Source: Dictyostelium discoideum
Taxonomy: Eukaryota
Reading direction: 5' to 3'
Assembly (NCBI GenBank): GCA_000004695.1
Contig: CM000151.3
Location: forward strand, 2,240,001-2,304,000
DNA length: 64,000 nucleotides
The position numbers and the translations under genes were made by a program. The notes beneath the pieces were generated by a model. That model did not search any database, had not been told where the DNA came from, and saw only the letters and a list, made by a program, of their open reading frames with translations. Positions within the stretch are counted from its first letter, which is position 1. Every line of letters begins with the position of its first letter. Below, in pieces: positions 1,413 to 30,045 of this stretch.

Positions 1413-1459
<47 letters not shown>

Positions 1460-2843: not shown

Positions 2844-2871
2844 AATATATATATAAAAATAATAAATAATA

Positions 2872-3009
<138 letters not shown>

Positions 3010-3538
3010 CTAATTAAATTAATTAAATTTACTAATATATATAAAATAATTTATAAAAAAAGAATTAATTTTTTTTTTTTTTTTTTGGTAAAACCACCAA
3101 TTTCCATTAATGTGGGAGGTTTTAAAACATTTTTTTTATTTTTTTTTAATTTTTTATTTTATTTTTTTTTTTTTTATACAAATTAATATGTATATAAACT
3201 AATTTTTTTTTTTGGTAAAAATCATTTAAATTTTTTTTTTTTTTTTTTTTTTTTTTTGGTAAAAATCATTTAAATATTCATTTTTTTTTTTTTGTGTTGA
3301 TTTCTTATATTTTTAGCAATTCTAATTTATTTAAACAAATAAAAATAGAACGTTTAATTAAATTTGATTTTTTTAATTTTTTATTTTTTTATTATTTTTT
3401 TATTTTTTTTTTTATTTTATTTTTTTTTTTTTTATAAAAAAACTTCAACCTTTCCTCCTAAAAAAAAAATCGAAAAATTTTTTCATTTTTTTTTTTCAAA
3501 CTTTATTTCTGTTCATACATATCCTATTCAACTAAAAA

Positions 3539-5192: not shown

Positions 5193-5225
5193 ATAAATAA
5201 AATAAATATAAATTAATATTTAATC

Positions 5226-5257
<32 letters not shown>

Positions 5258-5487
5258 TTAAATGATTTATTGGGTTTTGTCGGTAATATTAGGTCTTTGA
5301 AATTAAGTAAACTAAATTTCGCATTTTAACATTAAATAAAATGAATTTTAATGGTTATTTCTCTTTTTTTTTAAATCAATAAACTAACATCTGTAGAACC
5401 TTTGGTTTGAATCGCTCATTGGATAGGTTTTAAGGATTTGTTGATTACAAAAATCTTTATTACAATTACTAATAATAAGCAGATTCT

Positions 5488-5529
5488 TTACATGGATTCT
5501 TTAATGAATGGCTTAACTGGTAGTGGTGG

Positions 5530-5582
<53 letters not shown>

Positions 5583-5643
5583 GGTGGTAATTTAATTTCA
5601 TTTTCTGTGAGGCATTATCTTGAGGTTTCTTTTCAGACTCTTT
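5488..5643 (-). CDS. Probable 3'-terminal coding exon of an unresolved minus-strand gene (K/E/D-rich, poly-Gln/Pro tail)
   Basis: Minus strand after acceptor gaatag (5645-5644) reads in phase 0: KESEKKPQDNASQKMKLNYH(Q)n PPLPVKPFIKESM, then stop TAA at 5490..5488. The exon is 156 nt, a multiple of 3. Upstream (5646-5900) the minus strand stays K/E/D-rich with stops in every frame, so there are probably several tiny introns that I could not resolve. Confidence 0.25.
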
Positions 5644-6031
5644 CTATTCTTTTATAACTATTGATGGCTTATCACTTGGAAATGTAGATTTGGATATTTA
5701 TCAACTTCCATCTGAGTGGATTCATCTTTATCAGATTTAGTTTCTTCATTCTCTTTATTTCAGTTTCCTTTTTATCACTTTAATTCTCATCTAATTTTTC
5801 TTTAGATCTTTCATTATCTTTTTTTTTTTTCTTTTTTTTTTTTCTTTGAATCAGATATTGCTTTTCCTTTGCCAATTGTGATTAATTTGTAAAAAAAGAA
5901 AGATTTTGGAGGGTAAAATTATTAAAATATAAAATTATTTTAGGAAATAAAATAAAATATAATAAAATAAAATATAAAAGGTGAAATATATCATAGTTTT
6001 TTTTATATTATCGAGTTCCAGATATGTTATC

Positions 6032-6064
<33 letters not shown>

Positions 6065-6148
6065 AATAATTATAAAATATATAAAATAAGATAAAAAAGT
6101 TTAATCATTTCGCTCAACTTTTATTAAAAATTAATTTAATTTTATCTC

Positions 6149-6185
<37 letters not shown>

Positions 6186-6848
6186 CCCTAAACAAACTCA
6201 TATATTTATTTTGTTATTTCTAATTTTATTTCTATTTATTTATTTATTTTATTTATCTTTTTATTTAATTTTATTTCTATTTATTTATTATTATTATTGT
6301 TTTTTTGTTTTTGTTTTGGACACAGAGGGAAACAAATTCCTTGATCTTCTGATCAGAAAACAAAAAAAAAAAAAAACCACAAAAAACACCAAAAAAAAAA
6401 TAAAGATTAACAAAGGTTTGTGGGAATTATTTGAAAAAAAAGTTTATTTTTGTTTTTTTAATTTTTATTTTTTTTGTTTTTTTTAATTTTTTAATTTTTT
6501 TTTTGGTGTAAAAAAAAAAAAAGTTTTTGTGTTTAATATCGCCATAATCCCCACAAACCTTAATTTATATTTGTTTTTTTGTTTTGGAGAAAATTAAATA
6601 GAAACTAATAATTGGCAAACAAATAAACAACAACAAACGAATATTTAAATAAAAATAATTAAAAAATAAAAAAAATAAAAAAATAAAAAAAATTTAAAAA
6701 AAAAAAAAAAAATAAAAAAAAATAAAAAAAAATAAAAAAAAAACAAAAATCTTTTTTTTTTTTTTTTACAAATATTTTTAAAAAAGTTACAAATAATAAA
6801 AATTAATAAATACTATAAATTAAAAAGAAAAAAAAAAAAAAAAAAAAA

Positions 6849-7364
6849 ATGGATCCGGGTAGAAGTCATATAGAAACAATAATAGAAAGCTCAACACATA
6901 AATTTATATTATTTGACGAACCGACAGAAGAGACGATACCGTATTTCAAAGATTTAATGAAGAAGAATTCATGTATTAATATAGTTAGATGTTGTGAAAT
7001 AAATTATGATGCATCATTATTTGAAGGTGTGAAAATTCATGAGCTTTGTTTTAAAGATGGTAATGTTCCACCGAAAGATATCATAGAGAGATGGTTAGAA
7101 ATTTTAAAGCAAGCTTTTATTGAAAATGGTAAACAAAAAACAACCGTTGGTATTCATTGTATCGCTGGTTTGGGTCGTACTCCTTTATTGGTTTGTATAG
7201 CTCTAATTGAAGATGGTATGAAACCATTACAAGCTGTTGAATTTGTTAGATCAAAAAGGAAAAATGCTATTAATAGTCCTCAAATTAAATTCTTAAAAGA
7301 GTAATAAAAAAAAAAAAAAAAAAATTTTATGTTCTTTCTTTCTTTTCTTTTAATTTACTAACCA

Positions 7365-7396
<32 letters not shown>

Positions 7397-7448
7397 ATTA
7401 TTATATAGATATAAAGCAAGTAAAAAAGCTGGATGTAAAATCATGTAA
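6849..7448 (+). CDS. PRL-type (PTP4A-like) protein tyrosine phosphatase; exons 6849..7300 and 7409..7448 (C-terminal CAAX mini-exon)
   Basis: Track ORF 6849..7304 carries the CX5R P-loop HCIAGLGRT plus PRL-like flanking sequence (GVKIHELCFKDGNVPP, LQAVEFVRSKRKNAINSPQ). The apparent stop GAG TAA is actually a donor GA|GTAATA (phase 2). Acceptor tatatag (7407-7408) adds EYKASKKAGCKIM and a stop at 7446-7448. That is a polybasic stretch plus the CAAX box CKIM, as expected for prenylated PRL phosphatases. Confidence 0.7.
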
Positions 7449-7691
7449 ATAATAAAAGATAAATTTTAAAAAAACCAAATATGCTGTTACTACCTTATTT
7501 ATAAGAAAAGATGGATGAAACAAGTTTAGTAAATAAATAAATAAAATAAATAAATAAATAAATAAAGAAATAAAGAGATAGATATAGTGACTAATATTGA
7601 AAATATTTATTATAAACTACATATTCCTTCATTTTTTGTTTTTTTTTGTTGTAGTTGTTGTTGATGTTGCATTTGTTTTTTTTTTTAAAAG

Positions 7692-8119
7692 TTATTTTGA
7701 TTCATTTTCATTAGCTGTATTATCGGTATCATCTTTTTGTTGTTCAACATCTAAATCTTTCATTTCTTGATCAGTGGAGAGTGATGTTGAAGTAGAGGAG
7801 GTTGTATCAGAAGGGAATGATGTTGTAAAAGATGATGAAAAAGCAAAACTATCTAAATTTGGTTGATCATTATTTCCTTTTTCAGTTGGAGTTGTAGTAG
7901 TAGTGGTTGTTGTTGTTGTAGTGGTTGTATTGGTTGATGAATTTAATCTTGACCCTGAATTTTGATTCTTATTAAATTCGATCACTTCTTCAGGTGTTAA
8001 ATGAGGAAGTGTTGATACATTTAACATTTTTTCAACTGCACATAAATATTTACTAAATGATGTATACATTTTATAATTGATAATTAATTCACAAAGTCTT
8101 TGTACTGTAAATGGTGATC

Positions 8120-8156
<37 letters not shown>

Positions 8157-8478
8157 GTTTTTATTATTATGGTTAATAAATCCTATTTATTATTTATATA
8201 TGATAATAGATATTAGTATATATATTCATACAATTTTGATTCTTTAAAACTATCAAGAAATTCTTTTTTCATTTTAATTAAACCAGAAAGGTTAACTTGA
8301 TTCTTTATTTTTTGCATTTCTTCATCTTTGATATTTACATTTAATTGTGGAGATTGTGGTGATTGTGGTGATTGTGGTGAATTGGTTGATGATGATGATG
8401 TATTAGTTGTTGTTGTTGTTGTGGATGTAGTTGTTGTGGATGATGTTGCAATGTATTCCTTTTCAAATATATCCAAAA

Positions 8479-8512
<34 letters not shown>

Positions 8513-8940
8513 TTTAAAAAAAAAAACATTTATATGAGTTAGTATATATAAATTTAATATTATTTTAATTTAATATATTTAAATAAATACTTCATTTAAT
8601 TTAAAATAAAACAATTCTTTTAATATATTCCAAGGATAGCATGTGATACCTGTTTTAGAAATGTTCTCTATAATACTATTTAATTCTGGTGTGACAACTT
8701 TTTTATCTTGTTTACAAAATTCTGAAAAAAAAAAAAAAAGAATAAATTAAGAACAATGATAGTTTTTAAAAAAAAAAAAAAAAAAAAAAAAGATAGAAAT
8801 TTTAATAGGGTTAGGATGGTGAAGATTTTTTTCAAGGAATTTTTTTTTTTTTTTTTTTTTTCTTTATTTTTTTATTTGTGGATATCTTACATACCTTCCA
8901 ATGACTTTTTTAAAGTTTCAGAATATTCAACTAATGTCAT
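7692..8940 (-). CDS. Hypothetical protein with T/S-rich low-complexity linkers; 4 exons (minus): 8940..8895, 8721..8591, 8479..8232, 8097..7692
   Basis: Exon 1 is ATG..MTLVEYSETLKKSLE+G with donor GTATGT (plus acatac 8889-8894). Exon 2 follows acceptor ttttttcag and reads EFCKQDKKVVTPELNSIIENISKTGITCYPWNILKELFYFKLNE, with donor GTATTT. Exon 3 follows aaaaag and joins track ORF 8213..8476 (ILDIFEKEYIATSS...SPQSPQSPQ...KESK), ending TT|GTATGA at phase 2. Exon 4 follows caaag and joins track ORF 7692..8069 (LLCELIINYKMYTSFSKYLCAVEKMLNV...). All phases are consistent. I did not recognise a conserved domain. Confidence 0.45.
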
Positions 8941-9078
8941 TTTTTATAAAAAGTACACTGTATTATGCGGAAATATTTAAGGATAAAACTTTCTTAATCT
9001 AGTGATAACCCACAAAAAAAAAAAAAAAAAAAAAAAAAAAATTAAAAAAAAAAAAAAAATTTTAAAAAAACTTTTTTT

Positions 9079-9118
<40 letters not shown>

Positions 9119-9351
9119 TAAAAATATCAAATTTCACACCCAAGATAGAACAAATTTAAAAAAAATAAAATTGTTATTTCAACTAAAAAAAAAAAAAATA
9201 AATGGATCCACAAAGTTCATAATAAATAAAAAAAAAAAAAAAAGATAATTCATTGTAAAAAAAAAAAAGTAATAAAAAATAAAATCTCAAACCAAGATAA
9301 ATCCTACCAAAAAAAAAAAAATTAAAAATAATAAATAAATAAAAAAAAAGA

Positions 9352-9382
<31 letters not shown>

Positions 9383-9593
9383 CAAAATAAATAAATCATG
9401 CTAAATCCCTGAAATATAGATATTAAAAAATATTTTCGACATTTTTAAAAAAGTTCTTCTTTTTCTATCTAGATAAAATTTCTTTTTTTTTAAAAATTTT
9501 TTTTTTTTTTTTTTTGTTTTATTTTTTTTTTTTTTTTCAATTTTATTTTTATTTTTTTTATTTTTTTTCTTTCCATATATACTCAAAAACAAT

Positions 9594-10128
9594 ATGTCTT
9601 TAAATAATTTTTCACCAGAAGAAAAACAAAATATTGTTAGATCCATTTTTGCAGAAGAAGAAATAGTTTACAATGTATTTTTTGAAAGGTATTAAAAAAA
9701 AATAAAATAAAAAATAGAAAAAAAAAATTAGAAAAAAACTTAAACTTTTTCATCAAAATCTTTTACTTTTACATTTACTTTTACTTAACCTGACTTAACC
9801 TGACTTAAAATAACTTAAATATTTTTAAAGAGGAGATGATTCATTTAAAAATTTGAAATTATCAGAGATTAAGGCTATATTATCAATATTGAAATCATCA
9901 AGAAGTATGGCATATCCTTTATCTGGTAAAAAACAAGTTTTGGTAGATTTATTAACTTCAATTGGATTTGTTGGACCAATCAATACATCACCTCAACCAC
10001 AACCACCACAACCACCACCATCACCAACACCACCTGGATTATTCCAAGAAGAACTTCAACCACACTCATTTTTGGAATTAGATTTGGGAATTACAGTAGA
10101 GTTGGATAATTTATTGGGAGAAAATTAA
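9594..10128 (+). CDS. Small SAP-domain-like protein; exons 9594..9688 and 9831..10128
   Basis: Exon 1 reads MSLNNFSPEEKQNIVRSIFAEEEIVYNVFFE+AG, with donor GTATTA at 9689. Acceptor tttttaaag (9829-9830) joins track ORF 9853..10128 in phase 2 (RGDDSFKNLKLSEIKAILSILKSSRSMAYPLSGKKQVLVDLL...PQPQPPQPPPSP). The stretch L..L.V.E....L......LSGKK..L..LL resembles the SAP helix-extended-helix motif. The intron contains a cttaacctga repeat. Confidence 0.5.
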
Positions 10129-10242
10129 ATGGAAAAAAAAAAAAAAAAAAAAATAAACAAAGAAATTTTGTAATATTAAAAAAAAAAATAAAAAAAAAAA
10201 AGATATAAATAAAATAACATACACACTATATTTTTATAAAAT

Positions 10243-10277
<35 letters not shown>

Positions 10278-10805
10278 TTAATCTTATTTGACGAAATATT
10301 TATATTTCACTCTTATAAATCTAATCATTTCAAAAACCAAAATATGAATTCCAAATATTTTTTTTTTTTTTTTTTTCTTTTTTTTTTTTTCTTAAATAAA
10401 TTATAAAATTTTTTTTAAATCAAAAATGACAGATAGATAGATTAAAAAAAAAAAATTAATTTATTTATTAATAAAAAAACAATGAGAGTTTTTATTGTTT
10501 AAATATATATATATTTGAATTTTATTGTGAAGATTAACTATTTATTTTAACAACTCTACAATTAGTAATAAATCAAAATAATAGATTAAATTATTATTAT
10601 TTTTTACTCACCTAAAAACAACAACAACAACAATAAAAAAAAAAAAAAAAATAAAAATAAAAAAAAAAATAAAAATTTTTATCTACCACCCATTTTTTCA
10701 CACTACAAAGACATAACCACCACACATTCTCACACCTAAAACCCACACTAACTTACACACATAGACAAAGCGAAACCAATACATCTCCACTAAAACACTC
10801 ATAAA

Positions 10806-10843
<38 letters not shown>

Positions 10844-11459
10844 ACATTAAAAAAAAAGGAATATTCATTAAATCTCAAAGCTTACTCTATATCTCTGTCA
10901 CTCTCGACATATAAAATCATATATCAACAACAAACCACACTTTAACACATAATTAATTTGGTAGTTGGGTGAATTAAAAAGTTAATTTTTAATTTAAAAT
11001 ATGATTATCAATGTTGTTTAATGGTTTCATAATGATTTTTAATGAGGAAAAATATTAAAGAGTGTTTGGAACGGTGTGGGGGTAATTAAAAACATTCCAT
11101 TTATCTACATAAAAAATCATTTTTTTCTAAATATATTTTTATTTTTTAAATTTTATACTCTGTTTGTTTGGGGTTATACATAAAATACTATATTAATTAT
11201 TTATTTTTTTTTTTTTAATTTATATTTTTTTTTTTTTTTTTTTTAATTTTTTTTATTTAAATATTTAAATTTATTATTATTTTTTATTTATCCTTACCAT
11301 TTTTCAATTTATATTAATTATTATTTTCAATAAACATCACTTTTTTTTTTTTTTTTTTTTTTAAAAACAATTAAAATAATTATAAACATAAATTTATTTA
11401 AATATTAATATTATTAATATTATTAATGTTTTTTTTTTTTTTTTAAAAAAAAAAATATA

Positions 11460-13406
11460 ATGATGGAGCCAATTAATTATAAAAATATATCATTTAATGA
11501 TATTAAATTAGATAGTAATTGTAATAGTAGTAGTAGTAGTTCAAGTAGTAGTATTGGTAGTAATAGAAGTGGTAGTGGTGGTGGTGGTGCGATTTCAAGA
11601 AAAAGTTTTGATTGTAGTACTAGTAATGGTATTAGTGAATTTGGTGGTGATGATGGTGGTTGTGGTGGTGGTTGTGGTGGTGATATGGGTAATAATATTA
11701 ATATTAGTATTAATAAACGTCATAATTCAGTAAATAGTATTAGTAGTAATAAAAATATAAATTGTTTGTATCATGATTTAAATGATTTAATTACATATTG
11801 TAATGATTGTGAAAGAATGATATGTGTACAATGTATAGTTAGTAATGATCATTGTGGTCATAAATTCACAGAGATATCAAAACCATTTGCGTCAAGTTTA
11901 TTAGAGAAATTTCAAAAACAACAATTCCCAAATCTATTAGGTTATAGAGAAAGTGATAAACATATAATTTCAGCATTAGATTATTGTTGTAATGATGTCG
12001 AGCGCCAACATATAGAATCGGTAAAACAAGTCAAACAACATTTTCAAAAATTAATTGAATCGATTCAGTCCATTGAAAAGGATATCATTGAAAAATTACA
12101 ATCAACAGTTGAATGGAATAAAGAATTACAAAATTCAATTAAACAGCAGTTTGAAAGAGATTCAAAGAAAATCGATTCGATAATTTCAAAACATCATTCG
12201 AAAATCAATGGTTATCAAATTGACCAAATTTACGATTTTGAAACTAAACAACATATTGAAATTATTAAAGATTCAGATCAATGTACACCACTATTAAAAA
12301 GAAGATTGGAGATTTTAAATAATAATTCCTCTTCAAAAATTAAATTTAAAAATGATTTACTTACATTTAATATGGAAATATTTGACGAGATTAAAGAAAA
12401 AGTATTAAATTTCACAAAAATTGAAAATGTAGAATATAAAGATTTAAAATCAACTAAACAACATTTAATGTTAAATAAGAAGATTCAACCTTATAATATT
12501 GATTATTATTTATGTCATGGTGAGCCAATTCCATTAGGTGAGACATCGGTTGCATTGGATTCAAAATATTCTTCAAAATCAATTTGTATTCAGTCAAATA
12601 AAAGTATTGATAGATTGTTATTATGTAATGGTTTTAAATTATCATTGAGTGAGTTTAAAATACCAGATTCAATTAAAACATTGAGAATTGGTGATATTAA
12701 ATACTCTTGGGATGCAAATTCAATACCATCAAGTGTAACAGAGTTACATCTATGTGATGGTTTTAATCATATTCTTTCGAGTGGTATGATACCAAATACA
12801 GTTACAAAATTATATTTATATGATATTAAACAACCTTTAACTATGGGTTCAATACCATCAAGTGTAAATGAATTACATATGTGCGATGGATTCAGTTTAC
12901 AATTGGCTCCATTCGTTTTACCAAATTCTATAACTTCATTAAGTATAGGTGAAATTAAATATTCAATTCTACCAGAATTTATACCATCAAGTGTAAAAAA
13001 GATACGTTTATATAGTAGTTTTAATCATCCAATTATTCCTCAAAATATTTCAGAATCTGTTGAAACTTTAGTATTATTTAATATTAAATTAAATCTTGAA
13101 AATAAAGTAATACCAAAATCAATTAAAGAATTACATTTATGTGATGGATTTGAACAACAAATTCAACCATTCTCAATTGAAAATGGTGGAAAATTAGAGA
13201 AATTGGTATTATGTGATATTAAAGAAAAACTATTAAAAAATTCAATACCAAATTCTGTTAAAAAATTAATTTTCTTAGGTTATAATCATCAATTAGAAAA
13301 TGGTATTTTAAATGATTCTTTAGAATTAATTTATTTTAGTAAAAGTTTTACTCATCCAATTGATAATAATTTAATTCCAAATAATATTGAAATTATAAAA
13401 AAATAA
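11460..13406 (+). CDS. B-box zinc finger plus FNIP-repeat protein, single exon
   Basis: Track ORF, 648 aa. The N-terminal half has a Cys/His B-box-like cluster (CLYHDLNDLITYCNDCERMICVQCIVSNDHCGHKF). The C-terminal half is repeated ~22-aa units with IPSSV(T/N)ELHLCDGFN... and IPNSV.KL.F, the Dictyostelium FNIP-repeat signature. Confidence 0.8.
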   Translation: MMEPINYKNISFNDIKLDSNCNSSSSSSSSSIGSNRSGSGGGGAISRKSFDCSTSNGISEFGGDDGGCGGGCGGDMGNNINISINKRHNSVNSISSNKNINCLYHDLNDLITYCNDCERMICVQCIVSNDHCGHKFTEISKPFASSLLEKFQKQQFPNLLGYRESDKHIISALDYCCNDVERQHIESVKQVKQHFQKLIESIQSIEKDIIEKLQSTVEWNKELQNSIKQQFERDSKKIDSIISKHHSKINGYQIDQIYDFETKQHIEIIKDSDQCTPLLKRRLEILNNNSSSKIKFKNDLLTFNMEIFDEIKEKVLNFTKIENVEYKDLKSTKQHLMLNKKIQPYNIDYYLCHGEPIPLGETSVALDSKYSSKSICIQSNKSIDRLLLCNGFKLSLSEFKIPDSIKTLRIGDIKYSWDANSIPSSVTELHLCDGFNHILSSGMIPNTVTKLYLYDIKQPLTMGSIPSSVNELHMCDGFSLQLAPFVLPNSITSLSIGEIKYSILPEFIPSSVKKIRLYSSFNHPIIPQNISESVETLVLFNIKLNLENKVIPKSIKELHLCDGFEQQIQPFSIENGGKLEKLVLCDIKEKLLKNSIPNSVKKLIFLGYNHQLENGILNDSLELIYFSKSFTHPIDNNLIPNNIEIIKK

Positions 13407-13642
13407 AAAAATTTAAATAAAACAAAAAATAAATAAATAAATAAATAAACTTTTGACCTATTTAAAATATTATAGTAATTATTTTAATTAAAATAAATAT
13501 TTTTTTTTTTTAATTTTTTAATTTTTTTTTTTTTTTTTTTTTGTGTGTTTTTGGTTATGTGTTTGTGAAGAACACCATCCAATTTATTTGTTTTAGAAAA
13601 ACAAATATAAAATTATTTTAAAATTATGATTTATTTTTATTT

Positions 13643-15760
<2,118 letters not shown>

Positions 15761-15995
15761 TTTAAAATAAATGAAAAAATAAAATGAAAAAATAAAAAAA
15801 AAAAAAAAAAAAAAAGGGAAAAAAACAAAAAAAAAGAAAAAAAAAAACAAAAAAAAAGCGAAAAAACTGAAAAAAAAAATTGGAAAAAACTGAGAGTTTT
15901 TAAATAAGATGTTTATTTGTGGCAATATTATTACATTTATAAATAATATATTATTGGTGGTTTAATATATAAATTATAATTTAATTTTTGTAATT

Positions 15996-16334
15996 TTAAT
16001 TACAACCACAATTGTTTGAACCTCCAGTTAAAATGGAACCAACTCCATGTAAAACAGAACCAACAATTACACCAGTACCAGTAAGAACACCACCAACGAG
16101 ACCACCGACTGCACCGAGTAATCCTCCATTTCCACAACCACCGCATTGAATTGAATTCATTGATTGTAAAGAAGATGACGAGTTTGATAATGATGATAAA
16201 TTATTTGATTTTGAAATTGATTTAACATTACCAATTGATGAGATTGAAGCTATTTTAATAATAAAATTTAGAATTATTATTTATTTATTTTTTTTTTTTT
16301 AATTAATTTCTTTTTACATACCTAAAATTGTCAT
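15996..16334 (-). CDS. hssA/2C/7E-family (HssA/B-like) small Gly/Ser-rich protein, copy A; exons 16334..16322 and 16249..15996
   Basis: The 13-nt first exon is ATG ACA ATT TTA G|GTATGT (MTIL+G). Exon 2 follows aaatag and reads [84 protein letters not shown]. From memory this closely resembles known Dictyostelium HssA/B-like proteins; I ran no search. Confidence 0.7.
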
Positions 16335-16416
16335 TTTTATATTTGTTTAATTTTTATTTGTTTGATATACTAATTTTTTTTTTTTTTTTCTTATTAATAC
16401 TTTTTTTTTTATATGT

Positions 16417-16472
<56 letters not shown>

Positions 16473-16947
16473 AACCAAAATGGTAGATTAATTATTGATA
16501 TTCATATTTACAAGATTCTATTATAATATATGTATACTTATGAAAATAATCATATGAATAGGGTAACATGTTTTTTTTAAAGGTTATATAAAGTTAACTT
16601 TTATTAGAAAAATCACAATCACAATCACAATCACAATCACAATAACAATGTAAATTTTTTAAAAAAAATTAATTGTATTCTAATTAGGAAACAGTTTTTA
16701 TACCATTTTAGAACATTTCTTATTTTTTAAAAAAAAAACAATACAATCTAATGACAGTTTTGTTAAAAGGTCAAAAATAATACCCCATTCGTTTTTTTTT
16801 TTTTTTTTTTAAACCCCCTATTAATAAATAAAAAATCAATTAAAAATTATAGATTCAAACAAGGATTGATTGTTTTATATAGAATTAATACATGAATATA
16901 TCATTTTGATGAGAAGTTAATAATTCTTAATATTTTAATAGTATTTT

Positions 16948-16990
<43 letters not shown>

Positions 16991-17062
16991 AATAAAAATA
17001 GTTTATATTTTTTTCATAATTTATTATTATAAAACAAACAAATAAACATTTAAAAATTACAA
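16335..17062. promoter_or_regulatory. Inferred bidirectional promoter region between divergent hssl copies A(-) and B(+). Equivalent regions are 18245..18984 (C/D) and 20211..20936 (E/F)
   Basis: This is inferred only from the head-to-head gene arrangement. The C/D and E/F spacers share a conserved ~240-bp core (ttaaggaaataatgggttaaattttaagagaaaataacacaatcacaattta...ttatcgaaaatgataaacacaactttttt). The A/B spacer instead carries a (CACAAT)5 microsatellite at ~16617..16646. Confidence 0.3.
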
Positions 17063-17416
17063 ATGACAATCTTAGGTAATATTTTAAATAATATATTTAA
17101 ATTTTAAATATATATTTAAAAAAACAATATTAATAAATTTTAAAAATTTCAAAATAATTAAATAGCTTCAATCTCTTCAATTGGTAATGTTAAATCAATT
17201 TCAAAATCAAATAATGTATCATTATCAAATTCATCATCTTCTTTACAATCAATGAATTCAATTCAATGCGGTGGTTGTGGAAATGGAGGATTACTCGGTG
17301 CAGTCGGTGGTCTCGTTGGTGGTGTTCTTACTGGTACTGGTGTAATTGTTGGTTCTGTTTTACATGGAGTTGGTTCCATTTTAACTGGAGGCTCAAATAA
17401 TTGTGGTTGTAATTAA
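17063..17416 (+). CDS. hssA/2C/7E-family protein, copy B; exons 17063..17075 and 17166..17416
   Basis: Same two-exon architecture as copy A (ATG ACA ATC TTA G|GTAATA, acceptor aaatag). Product is 87 aa: [88 protein letters not shown]. It is divergently oriented to copy A and convergent with copy C. Confidence 0.7.
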
Positions 17417-17905
17417 AATTACAAAAATTAAATTATTTATATTTTAAATTAACCAAAAATAAAACCCAATTTTATAATTTGTAAAATAAAAAAAAAAAAA
17501 AAAAAAAAAAATATTAAGTAATACCTTTTTTAAAATTATTATTTAAATTATTATATTTCAAAGTAGTTCTTTTTTTTAAAAAAATAATAAAAGAGTTGTA
17601 ACTTTAAAAAATTATTGGTTGGTCTTTTAAATATAAAAAAAAAAAAAAAAAAAAAATTCCAAATTAAATTATTCCTGGGTAATGCAAATTTTAATAATTT
17701 AAAAAAAATTAAAAAAATAAAAAAAATTATTCAATCAAAAGGATTAATCATAAAAAAAATGAATTTTTATCAATTATTTCAACCTAATGTAATTATCTCA
17801 TTTATTACTTTTTCTTTTTTTTTTTTTCTTTTTTTTTTTACATTTACAAATAATTAAATTTTGTTTATTATAATTTATTTAATATATATTTATATTTTTG
17901 TAATT

Positions 17906-18244
17906 TTAATTACAACCACAATTGTTTGAACCTCCAGTTAAAATGGAACCGACTCCGTGTAAAACAGAACCAACGATTACACCAGTACCAACAAGAACTC
18001 CACCAACGAGACCACCAACTCCACCGAGTAATCCTCCATTTCCACAACCACCACCACATTGAATTGAATTCATTGATTGTAAAGAAGATGATGAATTTGA
18101 TAATGATGATAAATTATTTGATTTTGAAATTGATTTAACATTACCAATTGATGAGATTGAACCTATTTAATTGAAATTTTTAATTAATTACAATTTTTTT
18201 TTTTTTATATTTTTTTTTTTTTTTTTACATACCTAAGATGGCAT
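17906..18244 (-). pseudogene. hssA/2C/7E-family copy C; exon 2 (18162..17906) intact, first exon frameshifted
   Basis: Exon 2 is full length and in frame. The first exon, however, reads ATG CCA TCT TAG|GTATGT. Relative to the family consensus acctaagattgtcat, copy C has acctaagatggcat: a 1-nt deletion plus a substitution. This puts TAG in frame after 3 codons. It is either a pseudogene or a sequencing error. Confidence 0.5.
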
Positions 18245-18342
18245 TTTATTTATTAAGGTTTGGTTATATTTTGGTTTGGATAATTATAAATTTTTAATTT
18301 TTTCAAAATGATACTTTTTTTTTTTTATATAAAAACTTTTAA

Positions 18343-18385
<43 letters not shown>

Positions 18386-18984
18386 ATTATGTATTTGTTT
18401 TTATTAAATAATTGCAAAAAAATATAAGATACCCTACATTATCATTTATATAAAAAATTATATCTTAGATCATTATGATTTATTTTTTAAGGAAATAATG
18501 GGTTAAATTTTAAGAGAAAATAACACAATCACAATTTAAATTATTATAAAATTTATAGATTATTAAATATACAATTCAAATTAAGAAATAACACTTTACC
18601 ATTCTTGGATGATTCTTTTAAATCTTTTATATTCACTATTTAAGAATATCTATCTATATACAAAATTATCGAAAATGATAAACACAACTTTTTTAAACCC
18701 CCCAAAAAAAAAAAAAAAAAAAAAAAAAATAATAAAAAAATAATAAAAAAAAAAAAAATAAAAAATAAAAAATAAAACAAAGATTGAGTGATAAATTCAG
18801 ATTTAATGTATACATCTACAACGATATTATGATTAAAAGTTAAAGCAATACATAAATTTATTACTATTTAATTTTATTTATTTTTCAATTATTTTATTAA
18901 AAAAAAAAATTATAAAAACTTTTTTTTTTTTTTTTTTTTTTATATTCCAAAACAAACAATTAATACTAAAAAATAATATAAAAA

Positions 18985-19336
18985 ATGACAATCTTAGGTA
19001 TGCTTTATATTTTGTAAAAAAAAAATTAATTATTAAATACTTATTTTTCAAAATTTACTATAATAATAATTATTAAATAGGTTCAATCTCATCAATTGGT
19101 AATGTTAAATCAATTTCAAAATCAAATAATTTATCATCACTATCAAATTCATCATCTTCTTTACAATCAATGAATTCAATTCAATGTGGCGGTGGTTGTG
19201 GAAATGGAGGATTACTCGGTGCAGTTGGTGGTCTCGTTGGTGGTGTTCTTACTGGTACTGGTGTAATTGTTGGTTCTGTTTTACATGGAGTTGGTTCCAT
19301 TTTAACTGGAGGTCCAAACAATTGTGGCTGTAATTA
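18985..19336 (+). CDS. hssA/2C/7E-family protein, copy D; exons 18985..18997 and 19080..19336
   Basis: First exon ATG ACA ATC TTA G|GTATGC, second exon after aaatag. Product: [90 protein letters not shown]. Confidence 0.7.
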
Positions 19337-19873
19337 AAATTACAAAATTAAATTATAATTTATATATTAAACCAACCAAAAATTTAACCTCAATTTTATA
19401 ATTTGTAAAATAAAAAAAAATAAAAAATAGAAATATTTAATAATACTTTTTTAAAATTATTTTTAATTATTTAAATTTCAAAGCAGTTCTTTATTTAAAA
19501 AAAACTAATAAAAGAGTTGTAACTTTAAAATTATAAGTTTGTCTTTTAATTAAAAAAAAAAAACCACAAAAAAAAAAAAAAAAAAAATTCCAAATTAATC
19601 CTAGGTAATGAAAATTTAAATAATAATAATTTAAAAAAAAATTAAAACATAAAAAAATCATTCAATCAAAAAGATTAATCATAAAGAAAATGAATTTTTA
19701 TCAATAACCTCATTAATTACTCAAAATACTTTTTTTTTTTTTTTTTTTTTTTATCAATAACCTCATTAATTACTCAAAGCTTTTTTTTTTTTTTTTTTTT
19801 TTTTTTACATTTACAAATAATTAAACTTTGTTTATTTTTAATTTATTTAATATATATTTATAATTTTTTAATT

Positions 19874-20210
19874 TTAATTACAACCACAATTGTTTGAACC
19901 TCCAGTTAAAATGGAACCGACTCCGTGTAAAACAGAACCAACAATTACACCAGTACCAACAAGAACTCCACCAACGAGACCACCAACTCCACCGAGTAAT
20001 CCTCCATTTCCACAACCACCACCACATTGAATTGAATTCATTGATTGTAAAGAAGATGATGAATTTGATAATGATGATAAATTATTTGATTTTGAAATTA
20101 ATTTAACATTACCAATTGAAGAGATTGAACCTATTTAATAATAAAATTTATTAATACAATTTTTTTTTTTTTTATTTTTTATTTATTTTTTACATACCTA
20201 AGATTGTCAT
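19874..20210 (-). CDS. hssA/2C/7E-family protein, copy E; exons 20210..20198 and 20130..19874
   Basis: Same architecture (donor GTATGT, acceptor aaatag), and exon 2 is intact. Position was cross-checked against antisense track ORF 19894..20106. That ORF is near-identical to ORF 17926..18138, which reflects the ~1968-bp repeat period. Confidence 0.7.
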
Positions 20211-20697
20211 TTTATTTGTTTTGTTTTGTTTTGTTTTTATTTTGTTTTGTATATTATTAATATTTTTTTTTTTTTCTTATTTATACTTTTTTTTTATTTA
20301 TAAAAACTTTAAATTTTTTGAAAAAAAAAAAAAAAAACTATATTTTTATTTTTAATAATAACTAAACAATTGTAAAAAATATAAGATACCCTACATTTTC
20401 ATTTATTTAAAAAATTGTATCTTAGATCAGTATGATTTATTTATTAAGGAAATAATAGGTTAAATTTTAAGAGAAAATAACACAATCACAATTTATTATA
20501 AAATTTATAGATTATTAAATATACAATTCAAATTAAGAAATAACACTTTACCATTCTTGGATGATTCTTTTAAATCTTTTATATTCACTATTTAAGAATA
20601 TCTATCTATATACAAAATTATCGAAAATGATAAACACAACTTTTTTAAACCCCCAAAAAAAAAAAAAAAAAAAAAAAATAAAAATAATAAAAAAAAA

Positions 20698-20728
<31 letters not shown>

Positions 20729-20936
20729 AAACAAAGATTGAGTGATACATTGAGATTTAATATACATCTACAACTATATTATGATTAGAAGTTAAACCAA
20801 TACATAAATTTAATATTATTTAATATTATTTATTTTTCAATTATTTTATTAAAAAAAAAAAATTATAAATACTTTTTTTTTTTTTTTTTTTTTATTCCAA
20901 AACAAACAAATAAATAATACTAAATAATAATAAAAA

Positions 20937-21314
20937 ATGACAATCTTAGGTATGTTTTATTTTTGTAAAAAAAAATAAATAAAAAAATAAAATAAAAAAA
21001 AAATTTAATTATTAAATACTTATTTTAAAATTTACTATAATAACAATTATTAAATAGGTTCAATCTCATCAATTGGTAATGTTAAGTCAATTACAAAATC
21101 AAATAATTTATCATCATTATCAAATTCATCATCTTCTACACAATCAATGAATTCAATTCAATGTGGTGGTGGTTGTGGAAATGGAGGATTACTCGGTGGA
21201 GTTGGTGGTCTTGTTGGTGGTGTTCTTGTTGGTACTGGTGTAATCATTGGTTCTGTTTTACACGGAGTCGGTTCCATTTTAACTGGAGGTTCAAACAATT
21301 GTGGTTGTAATTAA
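20937..21314 (+). CDS. hssA/2C/7E-family protein, copy F; exons 20937..20949 and 21058..21314
   Basis: First exon ATG ACA ATC TTA G|GTATGT. Exon 2 reads ...[53 protein letters not shown]. The 3' 180 nt of this gene reappear as an isolated fragment at 25137..25316. Confidence 0.7.
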
Positions 21315-21700
21315 AATTACAAACTTAAATTATAATTAAAATATTAAACCAACCAAAAATAAAACCCAATTTTTTAATTTGTAAAATAAAAAAAAAAAAA
21401 AATAGAATTATTTAATTATACTTTTTTTAAAATTATTTTTTAAATTTATTATTTTTCAAAGTTGTTCTTTATTTAAAAAATTAATAAGAGTTGTAACTTT
21501 AAATTACAAGTTTGTCTTTTAAATATAAAAAAAAAAAATCACAAAAAAAAAAAATTCCAAATTAAATTATCCCTGGATAAGAAAATTTAAATAATAATAA
21601 ATTTAAAAAAAAATAAAAAAATAAAAAAAATCATTCAATCAAAAAGATTAATCATAAAGAAAATGAATTTTTATCAAAAACCTCATTAATTACTCAAAAT

Positions 21701-21759
<59 letters not shown>

Positions 21760-21978
21760 TTATGCTTTTGAATAGAAATCTCCGTTTGGCTGTCCTCGAT
21801 ATGATTATAATCTTCCATCACTCTCGATTAATATATCAAATTATTGTTTTCAAAAGATAATAAATTAACTACATCAATAAAATATATTAACCCCTTTTTA
21901 AAAAGGGGGTCCAAAAAACAAAAACAAAAATTTATATTAAATTTTATATTTGCACACAAATAAAAATAACACAGCTGT

Positions 21979-22010
<32 letters not shown>

Positions 22011-23031
22011 CAGACCCTGTTTGATAACGTAGTGATAAATACTTTTTTATTTATTTATTTTTTTATTAATATTCCAAAACGAACAAACAAATAATACTAT
22101 TAAATAATATCAAAAAATGACAATCTTAGGTATGCTTTATTTTTTGTAAAAAAAAAAAAAAAAAAAAAAATATTTAAATTATTTGTTTTTTAAAAATTTA
22201 ATAATAATTTTATATAGGTTTAATTTCATCAATTAGTAATGTTAAATCAATTTCGAAATCAAATAATTTATCATCATTATCAAATTCATTATCTTCTTTA
22301 CAATCAATGAATTCAATTGAACGCCGTGGCGGCATTAGCATTAGCAATCCAGGATTTCTCGGTGGAATTGGTCGTAACCCTGGTGGTATTCTTGTTGAAA
22401 CTTATGGAAGCTTGGAGGGGGTTCCATTTTAACTGGAGGTTCAAACAATTGTGGTTGTAATTAAAATTACAAAAATTAAATTATAATTTAAATATTAAAC
22501 CAACCAAAAATAAATCCCAATTTTACAATTTGTAAATGAAATAAAAAAAGAGTAATCTTATCTAAATTTTTTTTTTCTAAAATTCAAATAATTATCTTTA
22601 AAATAAAATAAAAATGTAATAAATAAAAATAAAATAAAATAAAATAAAAATAGTATAAAATAAAAATAAAAAAAAAAAATAAAAATAAAATTAAAATAAA
22701 ATAAAAATAAAATAAAATAAAATAATATAAAAAGAATCAATGGTATGTGATAGTGGAGGTAAGTCAGTGCTGTTCTCACTAATGGTGAATTTATTAAAAT
22801 ATTTTTTGTTCAATCGTTGGTGCATTAACAAAATTATTTATATTCTATCTTTTAAACTAAAATTCAAATATTTAAAAATAAAAAATTAAAAATAAAAAAT
22901 TAAAAATAAAAATAAAAAAAATTCCTTTGCCTGAGGGAGGAGATTGATAATTAATTATTACTAATAATAATAATAATAATAATAAATCTTTATTTTTTGG
23001 AAAATGAAAAAAAAAAAAAAAATTGTGATGG
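21135..23031. repeat. Copy 1 of a ~1.9 kb direct segmental duplication; copy 2 is 25137..27040 (offset 4002 bp)
   Basis: The two copies are near-identical (track ORFs 22558..22779 and 26560..26781 translate identically). I saw only one substitution (aattcctttgcc vs aattcatttgcc) and one repeat-length difference. Copy 1 runs directly into the N gap. Confidence 0.8.
22117..22432 (+). pseudogene. Diverged, Cys-less hssA/2C/7E-family copy G (exons 22117..22129, 22218..22432); duplicated at 26119..26434
   Basis: It keeps the family first exon and the N-terminal [29 protein letters not shown]. The conserved QCGGCGNGG block is replaced by [24 protein letters not shown] frame change then gives an early stop (..GSLEGVPF*). 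The downstream gttccattttaactggaggttcaaacaattgtggttgtaattaa is still recognisable but out of frame. A near-identical second copy lies 4002 bp downstream. Confidence 0.45.
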
Positions 23032-23131
23032 NNNNNNNNNNNNNNNNNNNNNNNNNNNNNNNNNNNNNNNNNNNNNNNNNNNNNNNNNNNNNNNNNNNNN
23101 NNNNNNNNNNNNNNNNNNNNNNNNNNNNNNN
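23032..23131. other. Assembly gap (100 N)
   Basis: A run of exactly 100 n characters. Confidence 1.
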
Positions 23132-25136
23132 TGATGTGTTGATGTCAAATGACTAGTAATCTATAAAAATCAAAGTCCGGTTCAAATTTAAAGTCATTTT
23201 AAAAATTTAAATATTTTTCGCTAAAAATTTAAAAAAAATCGATTTTTCAAAAATGGATCGGGGTTTTTATATTTAAAAATCATTCATAAGTAAATTGTTC
23301 CTATTTCCTATAAATTTTCTATAAATTTGAGAATGTTTAAAAACATATACGTTTTTAAATCCTACGAGTAATATTCCTTTTATTTTAATGAAAAGTTATC
23401 ACCTACGAAAAAACACCAAAAAACAGCGATTTTTTCAGAATTTTTTTAGGGGTCTATTTGACCCGCCAGACTACGCGCGTTGTTTCGAGGCTGTGTCAGT
23501 ACATCTGGAAAGCTTACTAGGAACCGTCGGTCGAGTGAACTAAATAGGAGTAATATTTATGAAAGTTACAGTGAAATTTTGCACTTTTTTACCCCCAAAA
23601 ATAGGGGGTACTTGAGAAAGTTTTTTGTAAACCAATTTTTTTTTTAACTTGCCATTTAAAAAGTAAGACATACAAAAGATAGCCCTCATTTTCAGCTATA
23701 TTATATCTAAAAATCATTGGAATAAAAAAATAGTACATATTTTTTTCGAATTTTTTTCGAACCTCCAAATTGAAATTTCTCACATTAATTTTTTTTTTTT
23801 TTATATGAAAAATTTTTTGGCGCCAAAATTTTAATAAGTTTTGATCGTGACCCCCTAGGCAAAAACGGAAAAATACATTAACATCGCCAAGAATATAACT
23901 AATTACAGTTACCTCACGGTCGACTCACCATAAAACCACTGTAATCTGTAAATGAGGATCCAATGTCATATTTTTACGAACTTCCGAGTTAAATAAAAAA
24001 TTGTGTTACTTGGTTGACTCTGCCGTGAGGTAACAGTAAGTGTAAAATTAAAATATCTATCTTTTAAAAAAACTTTGATTGATAAGGAACGACACCATTT
24101 AAATTTTTCGCTAAAATACACCAATTTTTGAATTTATTGGAAAATTTTCACTTTTCGTCCCCAGTCTTTATATTCACTATATGCACATAAGCTATTTGGT
24201 AAAATGTGTCAGAATATCTCTCATTGAGTCTAGTTGCTACTTTTATGGGTCTACATTCACTCAATTTCGTTAATTAAAATATCTATAAAGTTCCTTGAAA
24301 AATCCACGAAAAAACACTGTTTTTGGTGTGTCAACTTGGCGAATTTTTTAGGGGGTCCAGTACCCCCCTTTAAAATACGATCTTGTGTCAGATTATCCCA
24401 AATGCTCTGGAAAGCTTACTAGGAACCGTCGGTCGAGTGAACACGAGGGACTTTTTACTTAGCCTCCTTACACCAAAAAAAACTTGGGAAAAATGGTGAT
24501 TTTTCACTTACCACCCGCCAAAGATTCGATTGAATATTTAATAAAAAAAAATTGAGTGCAAAAAGCGAAATACAGAAGTTAGATACACGATAGATCATTA
24601 ACATACTCAAAAAGAATTAAATTTTAACGAGACGATTTACGCGCAGAATTTTTTTCGATTTTCCGAAAAAAAATTTCTCCATATAAAAAAATTTTTGAAA
24701 ATTTTTTAAAATTTTTTTTTCAGTAATTTTAATTTTTGGTACCTTAATGACCCCGTAGATAAACCGGATCAAGTGATTTCAACTTAGAATTTAATTCTAC
24801 GTCTACCATTACTCATTGGTCGAGTCACCGGTAAACCATAGATTTTTATTTTTCCTCAGATTCAGGCATCGATTCTCGTTGTTGACAAGCCTCAAAATTT
24901 ACTATATCTCAATATTAATTAAAATTAACAAATACAAAAAATAAAGCTCTTTTATATGTATATTGTGGAAGTGGCTATATTCGCTCAATTTTTTTTTATT
25001 AAATATTTTTCATTTTTGCCGGAAAAAAAAAAAAAAAAAAAATTTTCAACTTTCGTCCGAAGTTCCTAAATTTTTTTCTCACTTTAAAATTTAAAAATCC
25101 AATCATACAAAAACATCATAAAAGGGTGAGGATGCT
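23132..25136. repeat. GC-richer ~2 kb block made of ~0.9 kb diverged tandem repeats; probable degenerate repetitive or transposable-element remnant
   Basis: Its base composition differs clearly from the flanks. The 36-mer ctggaaagcttactaggaaccgtcggtcgagtgaac occurs at 23505..23540 and again at 24407..24442 (period 902). Other segments recur with the same period: aaatttttcgctaaaa at ~23210 and ~24100, and ttttcac(t)tttcgtcc at ~24130 and ~25040. Related inverted motifs are present (cggtcgactcacc and ggtcgagtcaccgg). There is no long ORF. I cannot assign it to a named element family. Confidence 0.5.
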
Positions 25137-25316
25137 TCTTTACAATCAATGAATTCAATTCAATGTGGTGGTGGTTGTGGAAATGGAGGATTACTCGGTG
25201 GAGTTGGTGGTCTTGTTGGTGGTGTTCTTGTTGGTACTGGTGTAATCATTGGTTCTGTTTTACACGGAGTCGGTTCCATTTTAACTGGAGGTTCAAACAA
25301 TTGTGGTTGTAATTAA
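25137..25316 (+). pseudogene. 3' fragment of an hssA/2C/7E gene, identical to the end of copy F, with no start or first exon
   Basis: 25137..25316 is identical to 21135..21314 (..[16 protein letters not shown]...NNCGCN*). The sequence upstream of 25137 is unrelated, so this is the truncated 5' edge of the duplicated segment. Confidence 0.6.
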
Positions 25317-25702
25317 AATTACAAACTTAAATTATAATTAAAATATTAAACCAACCAAAAATAAAACCCAATTTTTTAATTTGTAAAATAAAAAAAAAAA
25401 AAAATAGAATTATTTAATTATACTTTTTTTAAAATTATTTTTTAAATTTATTATTTTTCAAAGTTGTTCTTTATTTAAAAAATTAATAAGAGTTGTAACT
25501 TTAAATTACAAGTTTGTCTTTTAAATATAAAAAAAAAAAATCACAAAAAAAAAAAATTCCAAATTAAATTATCCCTGGATAAGAAAATTTAAATAATAAT
25601 AAATTTAAAAAAAAATAAAAAAATAAAAAAAATCATTCAATCAAAAAGATTAATCATAAAGAAAATGAATTTTTATCAAAAACCTCATTAATTACTCAAA
25701 AT

Positions 25703-25761
<59 letters not shown>

Positions 25762-25980
25762 TTATGCTTTTGAATAGAAATCTCCGTTTGGCTGTCCTCG
25801 ATATGATTATAATCTTCCATCACTCTCGATTAATATATCAAATTATTGTTTTCAAAAGATAATAAATTAACTACATCAATAAAATATATTAACCCCTTTT
25901 TAAAAAGGGGGTCCAAAAAACAAAAACAAAAATTTATATTAAATTTTATATTTGCACACAAATAAAAATAACACAGCTGT

Positions 25981-26012
<32 letters not shown>

Positions 26013-27354
26013 CAGACCCTGTTTGATAACGTAGTGATAAATACTTTTTTATTTATTTATTTTTTTATTAATATTCCAAAACGAACAAACAAATAATACT
26101 ATTAAATAATATCAAAAAATGACAATCTTAGGTATGCTTTATTTTTTGTAAAAAAAAAAAAAAAAAAAAAAATATTTAAATTATTTGTTTTTTAAAAATT
26201 TAATAATAATTTTATATAGGTTTAATTTCATCAATTAGTAATGTTAAATCAATTTCGAAATCAAATAATTTATCATCATTATCAAATTCATTATCTTCTT
26301 TACAATCAATGAATTCAATTGAACGCCGTGGCGGCATTAGCATTAGCAATCCAGGATTTCTCGGTGGAATTGGTCGTAACCCTGGTGGTATTCTTGTTGA
26401 AACTTATGGAAGCTTGGAGGGGGTTCCATTTTAACTGGAGGTTCAAACAATTGTGGTTGTAATTAAAATTACAAAAATTAAATTATAATTTAAATATTAA
26501 ACCAACCAAAAATAAATCCCAATTTTACAATTTGTAAATGAAATAAAAAAAGAGTAATCTTATCTAAATTTTTTTTTTCTAAAATTCAAATAATTATCTT
26601 TAAAATAAAATAAAAATGTAATAAATAAAAATAAAATAAAATAAAATAAAAATAGTATAAAATAAAAATAAAAAAAAAAAATAAAAATAAAATTAAAATA
26701 AAATAAAAATAAAATAAAATAAAATAATATAAAAAGAATCAATGGTATGTGATAGTGGAGGTAAGTCAGTGCTGTTCTCACTAATGGTGAATTTATTAAA
26801 ATATTTTTTGTTCAATCGTTGGTGCATTAACAAAATTATTTATATTCTATCTTTTAAACTAAAATTCAAATATTTAAAAATAAAAAATTAAAAATAAAAA
26901 ATTAAAAATAAAAATAAAAAAAATTCATTTGCCTGAGGGAGGAGATTGATAATTAATTATTAATAATAATAATAATAATAATAATAAATCTTTATTTTTT
27001 GGAAAATGAAAAAAAAAAAAAAAATTGTGATGGTGCGAATTCGATAACAGAGAGCACAAAATGCTGATTTTTTTTTTTTTTTTTATTATTTATAAAATTT
27101 TAAAAATAAATCAACAATAATGTAATTTTAGTTTTATATCATTGGTGCGTTTTGGTGGGTCACATTTACAAAGAGTGGGTTCACAGAAAAAAAAAAAAAA
27201 AAAATTGGTTGCATAATTAATAGTTGATCATCAAATTGATTATTATAACAATACAATTTTTTCACCCACCAATAAATCATTTTCAAAAAAAAAATTATTT
27301 TTATCCAAACCAAATATAAAAAACAAACAAAAATAAAAATAAAAAAAAAAAAAT

Positions 27355-27386
<32 letters not shown>

Positions 27387-28087
27387 GAAATCGTTCAAGA
27401 AAAAAAAAAATTTTTAAAATTAAATTAATTTAAATAAAAAAAAATAAAAAAAAAATAAAAAAAGAAATTAGAAAAAAAGAAATTAGAAAAATTTTTAAAA
27501 AAAAAAAAAACTATTTGCTATTCTTATTCAAATTTAAAATAAATAAATAAATACACACGCAATATATCTTTTTTTGTGATTTTTTTATTACTATAATTTG
27601 TTTTGTTTTTTTTTTTTTTTCCAAACATTAAAAGGAGTTATAGTTGTTAGTGGTTTTCAACATATCAATCTTGTGTGTTTTTGGAAAATAAAACTATAAT
27701 TTGTAATTTACACTTTTTTTGGTTATTAAATTCTTAATAATTTTATTTATTTATTTTTTTTTTTAATAATTTTGTTTTAATAACACCACAATTTTTACCT
27801 AAATTTTTTTTTTTTTTTTTTTTTGTTTTCATTCACACCAACTCCTTATAACTTTTTTTATTTTTTTATTTTTTATTTTTTTTTTATTTTTTTTTTTTTT
27901 AAATAATTAAATTTTAGTGTGTAACATTTTTGTTTTTTTAATCTACCATCACACAATATAAATAATAATATCATAGATACAAAATATATATACACACATA
28001 TACACACACTCACACACTTTATTAAATAAAAAGTAATATAATTTTTCCAGTATAAATAAAAAAAAAAGAAAAAAAAAATAAAAGAGG

Positions 28088-30045
<1,958 letters not shown>

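Follow-up and report, generated by a model that had tools for sequence, protein, structure and literature searches.

In the Dictyostelium discoideum AX4 reference, a near-identical 1.9-kb direct repeat in an hssl array is most probably one chromosome 2 locus written twice across a scaffold gap

The 64,000-nucleotide stretch of D. discoideum AX4 chromosome 2 analyzed here (the window, starting at chromosome position 2,240,001) carries, within an array of hssl genes, a near-identical direct repeat of about 1.9 kb, whose copies are separated by a run of 100 N and 2 kb of compositionally distinct DNA. Most probably (at roughly 0.9), the two copies represent one piece of AX4 chromosome 2 written twice across the gap, whereby the repeat is a redundancy of the reference and not a local duplication. 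It is also quite probable that the seam marks the proximal edge of the ~750 kb block that is known to be duplicated in Ax3/Ax4. The chromosome 2 event itself is already known and belongs to the best-known features of the AX4 genome; the local 1.9 kb repeat with its insert is a by-product of assembly. The window was compared with a 3.6-Mb contig of the assembly GCA_054883475.1 (L001), found via the identical 648-amino-acid (aa) open reading frame (ORF) of window 11460..13406, and with L059 and L060, two further assemblies under the label D. cf. discoideum that are more diverged. The elements concerned are the following, in window coordinates.

20937..21314, plus strand: hssl gene F, intact, on the left contig (exon 1 20937..20949, an intron, exon 2 21058..21314); the spliced model is an 89-aa HssA/B-like protein, collinear with the single L001 copy.
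21133..23031, plus strand: copy 1 of the repeat, the tail of the left contig, with F followed by G in the ancestral unrearranged order; it matches 25135..27033 and was compared with L001.
22117..22432, plus strand: gene G, a Cys-less, frameshifted, pseudogene-like hssl copy on the left contig, whose exact 75-aa product is annotated in AX4.
23032..23131, no strand: the 100-N scaffold gap, the only N run, where the left contig probably meets the head of the duplicated block, whose published start is 2,263,132.
23132..25134, plus strand: the 'insert', 2,003 bp with which the right contig, and very probably the duplicated block, begins; non-coding, CpG-rich, unique in the data compared and missing at the locus in the three other assemblies.
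25135..25141, plus strand: the junction zone, where the foreign head passes into exon 2 of hssl F, with CTTCT as in F and then TT for F's AC.
25135..27033, plus strand: copy 2 of the repeat, in which a 5'-truncated F' with its stop at 25316 is followed by the spacer, by G' (26119..26434) and by flank; collinearity continues into 27034 onward, and L001 19622..21947 matches 25135..27490.

The near-identical direct repeat of ~1.9 kb reported by the initial annotation is real as written: 21133..23031 is repeated, exactly 4,002 nt further on, at 25135..27033 in an ungapped match of 1,899 bp with four mismatched positions (copy 1/copy 2, in copy 1 coordinates: 21138 A/T, 21139 C/T, 22925 C/A and 22961 C/A). 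It contains the 3' two-thirds of hssl F exon 2, the downstream spacer, the Cys-less copy G and flank. Copy 1 indeed adjoins the gap, ending at 23031 directly before the single N run of the window (23032..23131). An extension of the repeat to 27040, as first proposed, is not supportable, copy 1 being cut by the gap, while copy 2 runs past its end into unique sequence from 27034 onward. Both copies have the same T54 run, and nine homopolymer runs of at least 10 nt are located within the ungapped repeat. A short palindrome, CCCCTTTTTAAAAAGGGGG, is present inside the repeat at 21891 and 25893 and resembles the hairpins of the insert described below.

The repeat is single in the independent assembly, and the insert is missing there. 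Window 1414..23031 is collinear with L001 1..21496, and window 25135..27490 with L001 19622..21947; bases 19622..21496 of L001 thus match both copies of the window, and beyond its counterpart of 23031, L001 continues unbroken into that of 27034 onward. L001 and the window are nearly the same genotype, with 28 substitutions in 21.6 kb (20 clustered within 430 bp, two at the contig end and six scattered) and 21 indels, nearly all of homopolymer length. L001 is presumably AX2-214 or an equivalent NC4-derived stock. A single copy without an insert had been named beforehand as the mark of an assembly artefact, and this is what the near-identical independent assembly contains; it also bears out the earlier caution that copy number and order are unreliable in this part of the array. 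In the two D. cf. discoideum genomes, the hssl array leads to G, then to the 27034..28354 region and the next gene, with nothing like the insert in between.

The distribution of the four mismatches is equally informative. At 21138/9 L001 has the bases of copy 1, and at 22925 and 22961 those of copy 2. The private differences of copy 2 are therefore at most 7 bp from the join with the insert, and those of copy 1 lie 107 and 71 bp before the end of its contig. Where both window copies have T54, L001 has T30 (24 nt shorter), the sole length difference between copy 1 and L001. Private differences restricted to the extremities of the copies, together with the common T54, therefore point to one locus written twice and not to two loci. 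The same features make a true AX4-specific tandem duplication of 1.9 kb, its copies separated by 2 kb or more of inserted DNA, highly improbable, although this is how the reference sequence is written and the Ax3/Ax4 genomes are known as structurally unstable (PMC2643946). Moreover, one copy ends exactly at the gap, the near-identical genotype of L001 has a single copy, and the insert lacks transposon features. No mechanism is known that would yield a flanking duplication of 1.9 kb, nor is any known element compatible with a 'target duplication' of this length.

When overlapping contig ends stay unmerged at a scaffold gap, a false tandem duplication results; this is a general assembly artefact, to which most features of the present case conform. 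The N run marks the exact end of one copy, even homopolymer lengths agree between the copies, whose mismatches are confined near a contig end (here at most 7 bp from the junction or 107 bp from the end of the contig), and an independent assembly has a single copy. What differs is that the overlap here begins 2 kb inside the right contig and not at its end; therefore, the cause is a genuine upstream conflict and not a mere failure to merge.

Such a conflict would be expected at the edge of the published duplication. The 648-aa ORF at 11460..13406 is DDB_G0272809 (XP_644998.1) of D. discoideum AX4, on an 8,484,197-bp contig whose size fits chromosome 2. In the reference listing, bases 2263132 to 3015703 of DDB0232429 are repeated at 3016083 to 3768654 (PMC8386026; PMC5052037), and the second copy is routinely masked by users (PMC5052037). 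Bloomfield et al. (2008) gave a length of 752,571 bp for this duplication (2E), 'as revealed by the sequence itself', and found it in all Ax3/Ax4 stocks but not in Ax2 (PMC2643946); the block length thus agrees across papers (752,571 or 752,572 bp). The same authors classed 2E as a tandem inverse duplication whose point of inversion, at the distal end, is unstable; this end is also an end point of another duplication, 2C of Ax2-214 (PMC2643946). Nanopore plus Illumina assemblies, AX2-214 among them, were deposited by Holland et al., who reported 99.5% identity of AX2 to AX4 and no rearrangement at another locus, the duplication not being in AX2, and chromosome 2 assembling as two halves in other genomes (PMC12745789).

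With the window starting at 2,240,001, the published block start would fall on the base that follows the gap (2,263,132 = 35×64,000 + 23,132), and the first base of the right contig is very probably the start of the duplicated block of the reference. The L001 locus, at ~2.279 Mb on its contig, is in line with this position. The exact 75-aa product of G carries two AX4 gene identifiers, DDB_G0273025 and DDB_G0274097 (UniProt Q556F7). Such paired identifiers are typical of the duplication on chromosome 2. The seam and the known duplication have in common the chromosome, probably the block start at the post-gap base, the paired identifiers of G and the absence from an Ax2-like assembly. In comparison, the published descriptions consulted give coordinates only and make no mention of a 1.9 kb contig overlap or a non-ancestral 2 kb head.

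The arrangement most likely arose as follows. The left contig (to 23031) represents the unrearranged order of hssl F, G and flank, reaching 1.9 kb beyond 21133, and the right contig (from 23132) would be the first contig of the 752,572-bp block present twice in the reference. From 25135, the right contig is the same locus as the left contig from 21133, with an overlap of 1.9 kb; the contigs would never have been merged because the first 2 kb of the right contig differ from the sequence before 21133. In a duplication-bearing strain, two sequences should precede the proximal breakpoint, namely the ancestral left flank and the rearrangement partner, and we infer that such a strain would assemble into exactly two contigs, alike downstream and conflicting upstream. 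If the reference builders used the block twice with the junction-bearing contig first, a misplaced 2 kb head and a redundant 1.9 kb would have resulted. The unmerged overlap would thus give the reference the false appearance of a local tandem duplication, with a misplaced 2 kb in between. The strain itself would have two copies of the 1.9 kb, within the large duplication, and the reference three (the tail of the left contig and two block copies), the first two of which are in the window. An assembler mis-join had already been offered as an alternative in the initial annotation; the assembly problem across the gap stands, while its supposed partners, 'alleles or array units', do not. On the best reading, the mis-join connects the unrearranged junction to the head of the duplicated block.

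The 2 kb head of the right contig differs clearly from its surroundings. The GC content of 23132..25134 is indeed raised, as had been noticed, with 0.295 against 0.195 in the repeat and 0.213 in the window. Its 59 CpGs correspond to an observed/expected ratio (o/e) of 1.36, while every other 2-kb tile has at most 35 CpGs, with an o/e of 0.50±0.25 overall and 0.52 in tiles of like GC. Its internal organization is based on the following elements.

23143..23938, plus strand: diverged unit 1, ~900 bp, in collinear local alignment with unit 2.
23504..23540, plus strand: copy 1 of a conserved 37-mer, TCTGGAAAGCTTACTAGGAACCGTCGGTCGAGTGAAC, an exact match to copy 2.
23918..23929, plus strand: second conserved motif, GGTCGACTCACC, with its unit 2 counterpart GGTCGAGTCACC at 24818..24829, both direct.
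24041..24838, plus strand: diverged unit 2, ~900 bp, in collinear local alignment with unit 1.
24406..24442, plus strand: copy 2 of the 37-mer, at a spacing of 902 from copy 1.

The two units share ~70% identity over 714 columns (score 202 compared to 45±5 in shuffles, z ~31). Out of the ~2.2 tandem units of ~900 bp originally proposed, these two diverged ones are confirmed, whereas the partial third aligns no better than shuffles (z ~0); TRF, in which periods up to 500 bp only were considered, found no long-period array. The repeated anchor ~902 bp apart exists as the exact 37-mer at 23504 and 24406. The second motif common to both units is GGTCGA(C/G)TCACC. All four GGTCGA motifs (23529, 23918, 24431 and 24818) are direct and the reverse complement is absent from the insert, which contradicts the inverted GGTCGAGTG / CGGTCGACTCACC motifs described at first. 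Likewise, the supposed lack of poly(A) tracts does not hold, with A20 at 25023, T14 at 23789 and T10 at 23636, although runs of at least 10 nt are fewer than in the flanks (three compared to nine). TCGA-containing motifs recur across 23132..25134. Hairpins with G/C stems are present at 23449..23464 and 24351..24367, at equivalent positions ~40 nt upstream of the 37-mer; the stems differ between the units (GGGGTC..GACCC and GGGGGT..ACCCCC), and unit 1 has an additional perfect hairpin, TACCCCC-AAAAATA-GGGGGTA, at 23590..23610.

The searches for relatives of the head were negative. The longest ORF in the insert is 64 aa, and its six-frame pseudo-protein had no match at E ≤0.01 among 5.8 billion proteins. 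No Rfam match was obtained over 20–28 kb, and no tRNA genes are present in the 64-kb window. No homologs of the insert were found elsewhere in the window or in the three related loci (L001, L059 and L060). A 34-nt core of the 37-mer had no exact match in metagenome contigs. An 18-mer core had no match in viral contigs and 57 other matches, which came from bacteria, all in DNA of 61–75% GC with only 19–24 nt matched, and are thus attributable to chance. The conserved motifs, as literal sequence, had no match in paper text.

An origin of the insert from a cloning vector, E. coli, phage or another contaminant is scarcely conceivable. The compositional difference alone speaks for it; blastn with words of 11, however, gave no match in 72,556 plasmids, 5,426 E. 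coli genomes and 50,697 phage records, and a sequence with no ORF above 64 aa, no protein relatives and a GC of 0.295 with long A/T runs does not look like such DNA. Vector, E. coli and phage contamination was accordingly rejected on nucleotide similarity. The other suggestion of the initial annotation, a mobile element inserted together with a local duplication, finds no support either, the insert having no coding capacity, no protein relatives and no second copy in the window or the three loci. With the Dictyostelium repeats and transposons (DIRS-1, Skipper, TRE5/TRE3, DDT, Tdd and thug) it shares a GC of ~30%, above that of intergenic DNA, and internal repeats. It differs from them in the lack of ORFs and protein homology, of a nearby tRNA gene and of a second copy (64 kb plus three loci), and no terminal repeats are seen in the insert, its left end being cut by the gap. 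A transposon insertion was rejected on the same lack of coding sequence, homology and terminal repeats (with the left end gap-cut), and because the flanking 'duplication' is 1.9 kb long. The ribosomal DNA (rDNA) palindrome was considered because rDNA is very abundant and has tandem segments. The comparison, made with 32 published primers only, gave a best exact match of 13 nt (P ~0.06); three of 29 control tiles did equally well, and the CpG o/e of the primers is 0.52 compared to 1.36 in the insert.

Somewhat more probably than not, the 2 kb head would be the true rearrangement junction partner. With slightly less assurance, and only a little above even odds, the joint at 25135..25142 may be the base-pair breakpoint of the 750 kb duplication, with the CpG-rich two-unit head coming from the unstable distal end. 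The head would then derive from the other breakpoint, which is ~750 kb distal. Being located within exon 2 of hssl F, the join is read as non-homologous because the sequence upstream of it is unrelated to hssl; it would be non-homologous or micro-homologous, with a match of 5 bp at most (CTTCT). Unbroken identity at the junction begins at 25142, and in place of the TT just before it L001 has AC, like copy 1.

The head might instead be a chimeric clone or mis-assembled unrelated DNA (for example, of high-copy or repeat origin) and hence uninformative on the rearrangement, in which case the block 'starts' there only since blocks were set by contig boundaries. This is unlikely, although it would accommodate the odd composition, the uniqueness in the window and absence from three related loci, the lack of relatives in any collection searched and the two unexplained base differences at the join. 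What speaks against a chimera is that the duplication needs exactly two different sequences upstream of its proximal breakpoint, as the two contigs show, and that the joint is the only non-collinear one relative to the Ax2-like L001 over window 1414..27490. Moreover, the homopolymer runs in the head are Dictyostelium-like, and the rDNA comparison with the 32 primers stayed at chance level, with control tiles doing as well.

Several points weigh against the placement at the duplication edge and against the junction partner. The correspondence to 2,263,132 is a numerical fit, backed by the chromosome identity, the paired identifiers and the L001 position, and no text confirms that GCA_054883475.1 is AX2-214. 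No source of the 2 kb head is present among the collections searched, so that a novel junction partner is what we infer; its CpG o/e of 1.36 sets it apart from the chromosomal DNA of the remaining window (0.5). The TT/AC difference 5 bp inside the apparent homology is not explained by a simple blunt join. Lastly, the duplication is 'tandem inverse' in the literature (PMC2643946) and a direct repeat in the reference listing, so that the junction may have either orientation.

Regarding the genes of the array, G (22117..22470 and 26119..26472) is frameshifted by several small indels relative to F, and the ancestral C-terminus persists out of frame. Although G is thus a frameshifted pseudogene, the annotation lists a protein for it (DDB_G0273025 / DDB_G0274097). 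The only match in a homolog search with F was a D. dimigraforme protein. Exact-ORF look-ups with F exon 2, two insert ORFs and two neighboring exons found none on record. From the P450 gene to the next downstream gene (15318..28088), the hssl array measures ~12.7 kb as written in the AX4 reference and ~8.8 kb after subtraction of the 4 kb redundancy, compared to ~5 kb in both D. cf. discoideum genomes (L059 14050..19022 and L060 14217..19457). The copy number of the hssl array changes quickly among close relatives. One exon of the P450 gene (14302..15318, minus strand) has a very long poly-Asn tract, and the P450 ORF as listed extends into poly-Leu/poly-Tyr, probably through intron or intergenic read-through.

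In 19 of the 21 indels between L001 and the window, a run is shorter in L001, by up to 24 nt, and all but one are in homopolymers; this looks like an effect of sequencing technology rather than biology, and homopolymer lengths appear untrustworthy in either assembly. A cluster at window 17924..18354 (L001 16432..16854) accounts for 20 of the 28 substitutions; in its second part (18241..18354), the differing positions read G or A in the window and T in L001. On the minus strand at 18228..18244, the window reads ATGCCATCTTAGGTATG in comparison with the canonical hssl start ATGACAATCTTAGGTATG in L001. The cluster is either a low-quality stretch of the reference or an hssl copy mutated in AX4.

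Overall, one 1.9 kb copy in this stretch of the AX4 reference, comprising the 3' end of hssl F and pseudogene G, is redundant and 2 kb are out of place, and as a result, read mapping, copy-number calls, look-ups of REMI or CRISPR sites and counts of hssl genes would be wrong here. The value of the finding is practical, with no sign of new biology. If the contig head is the true junction, it would provide a simple PCR marker for the Ax3/Ax4 lineage, as well as the base-pair breakpoint and a first look at the sequence context in which the duplication arose.

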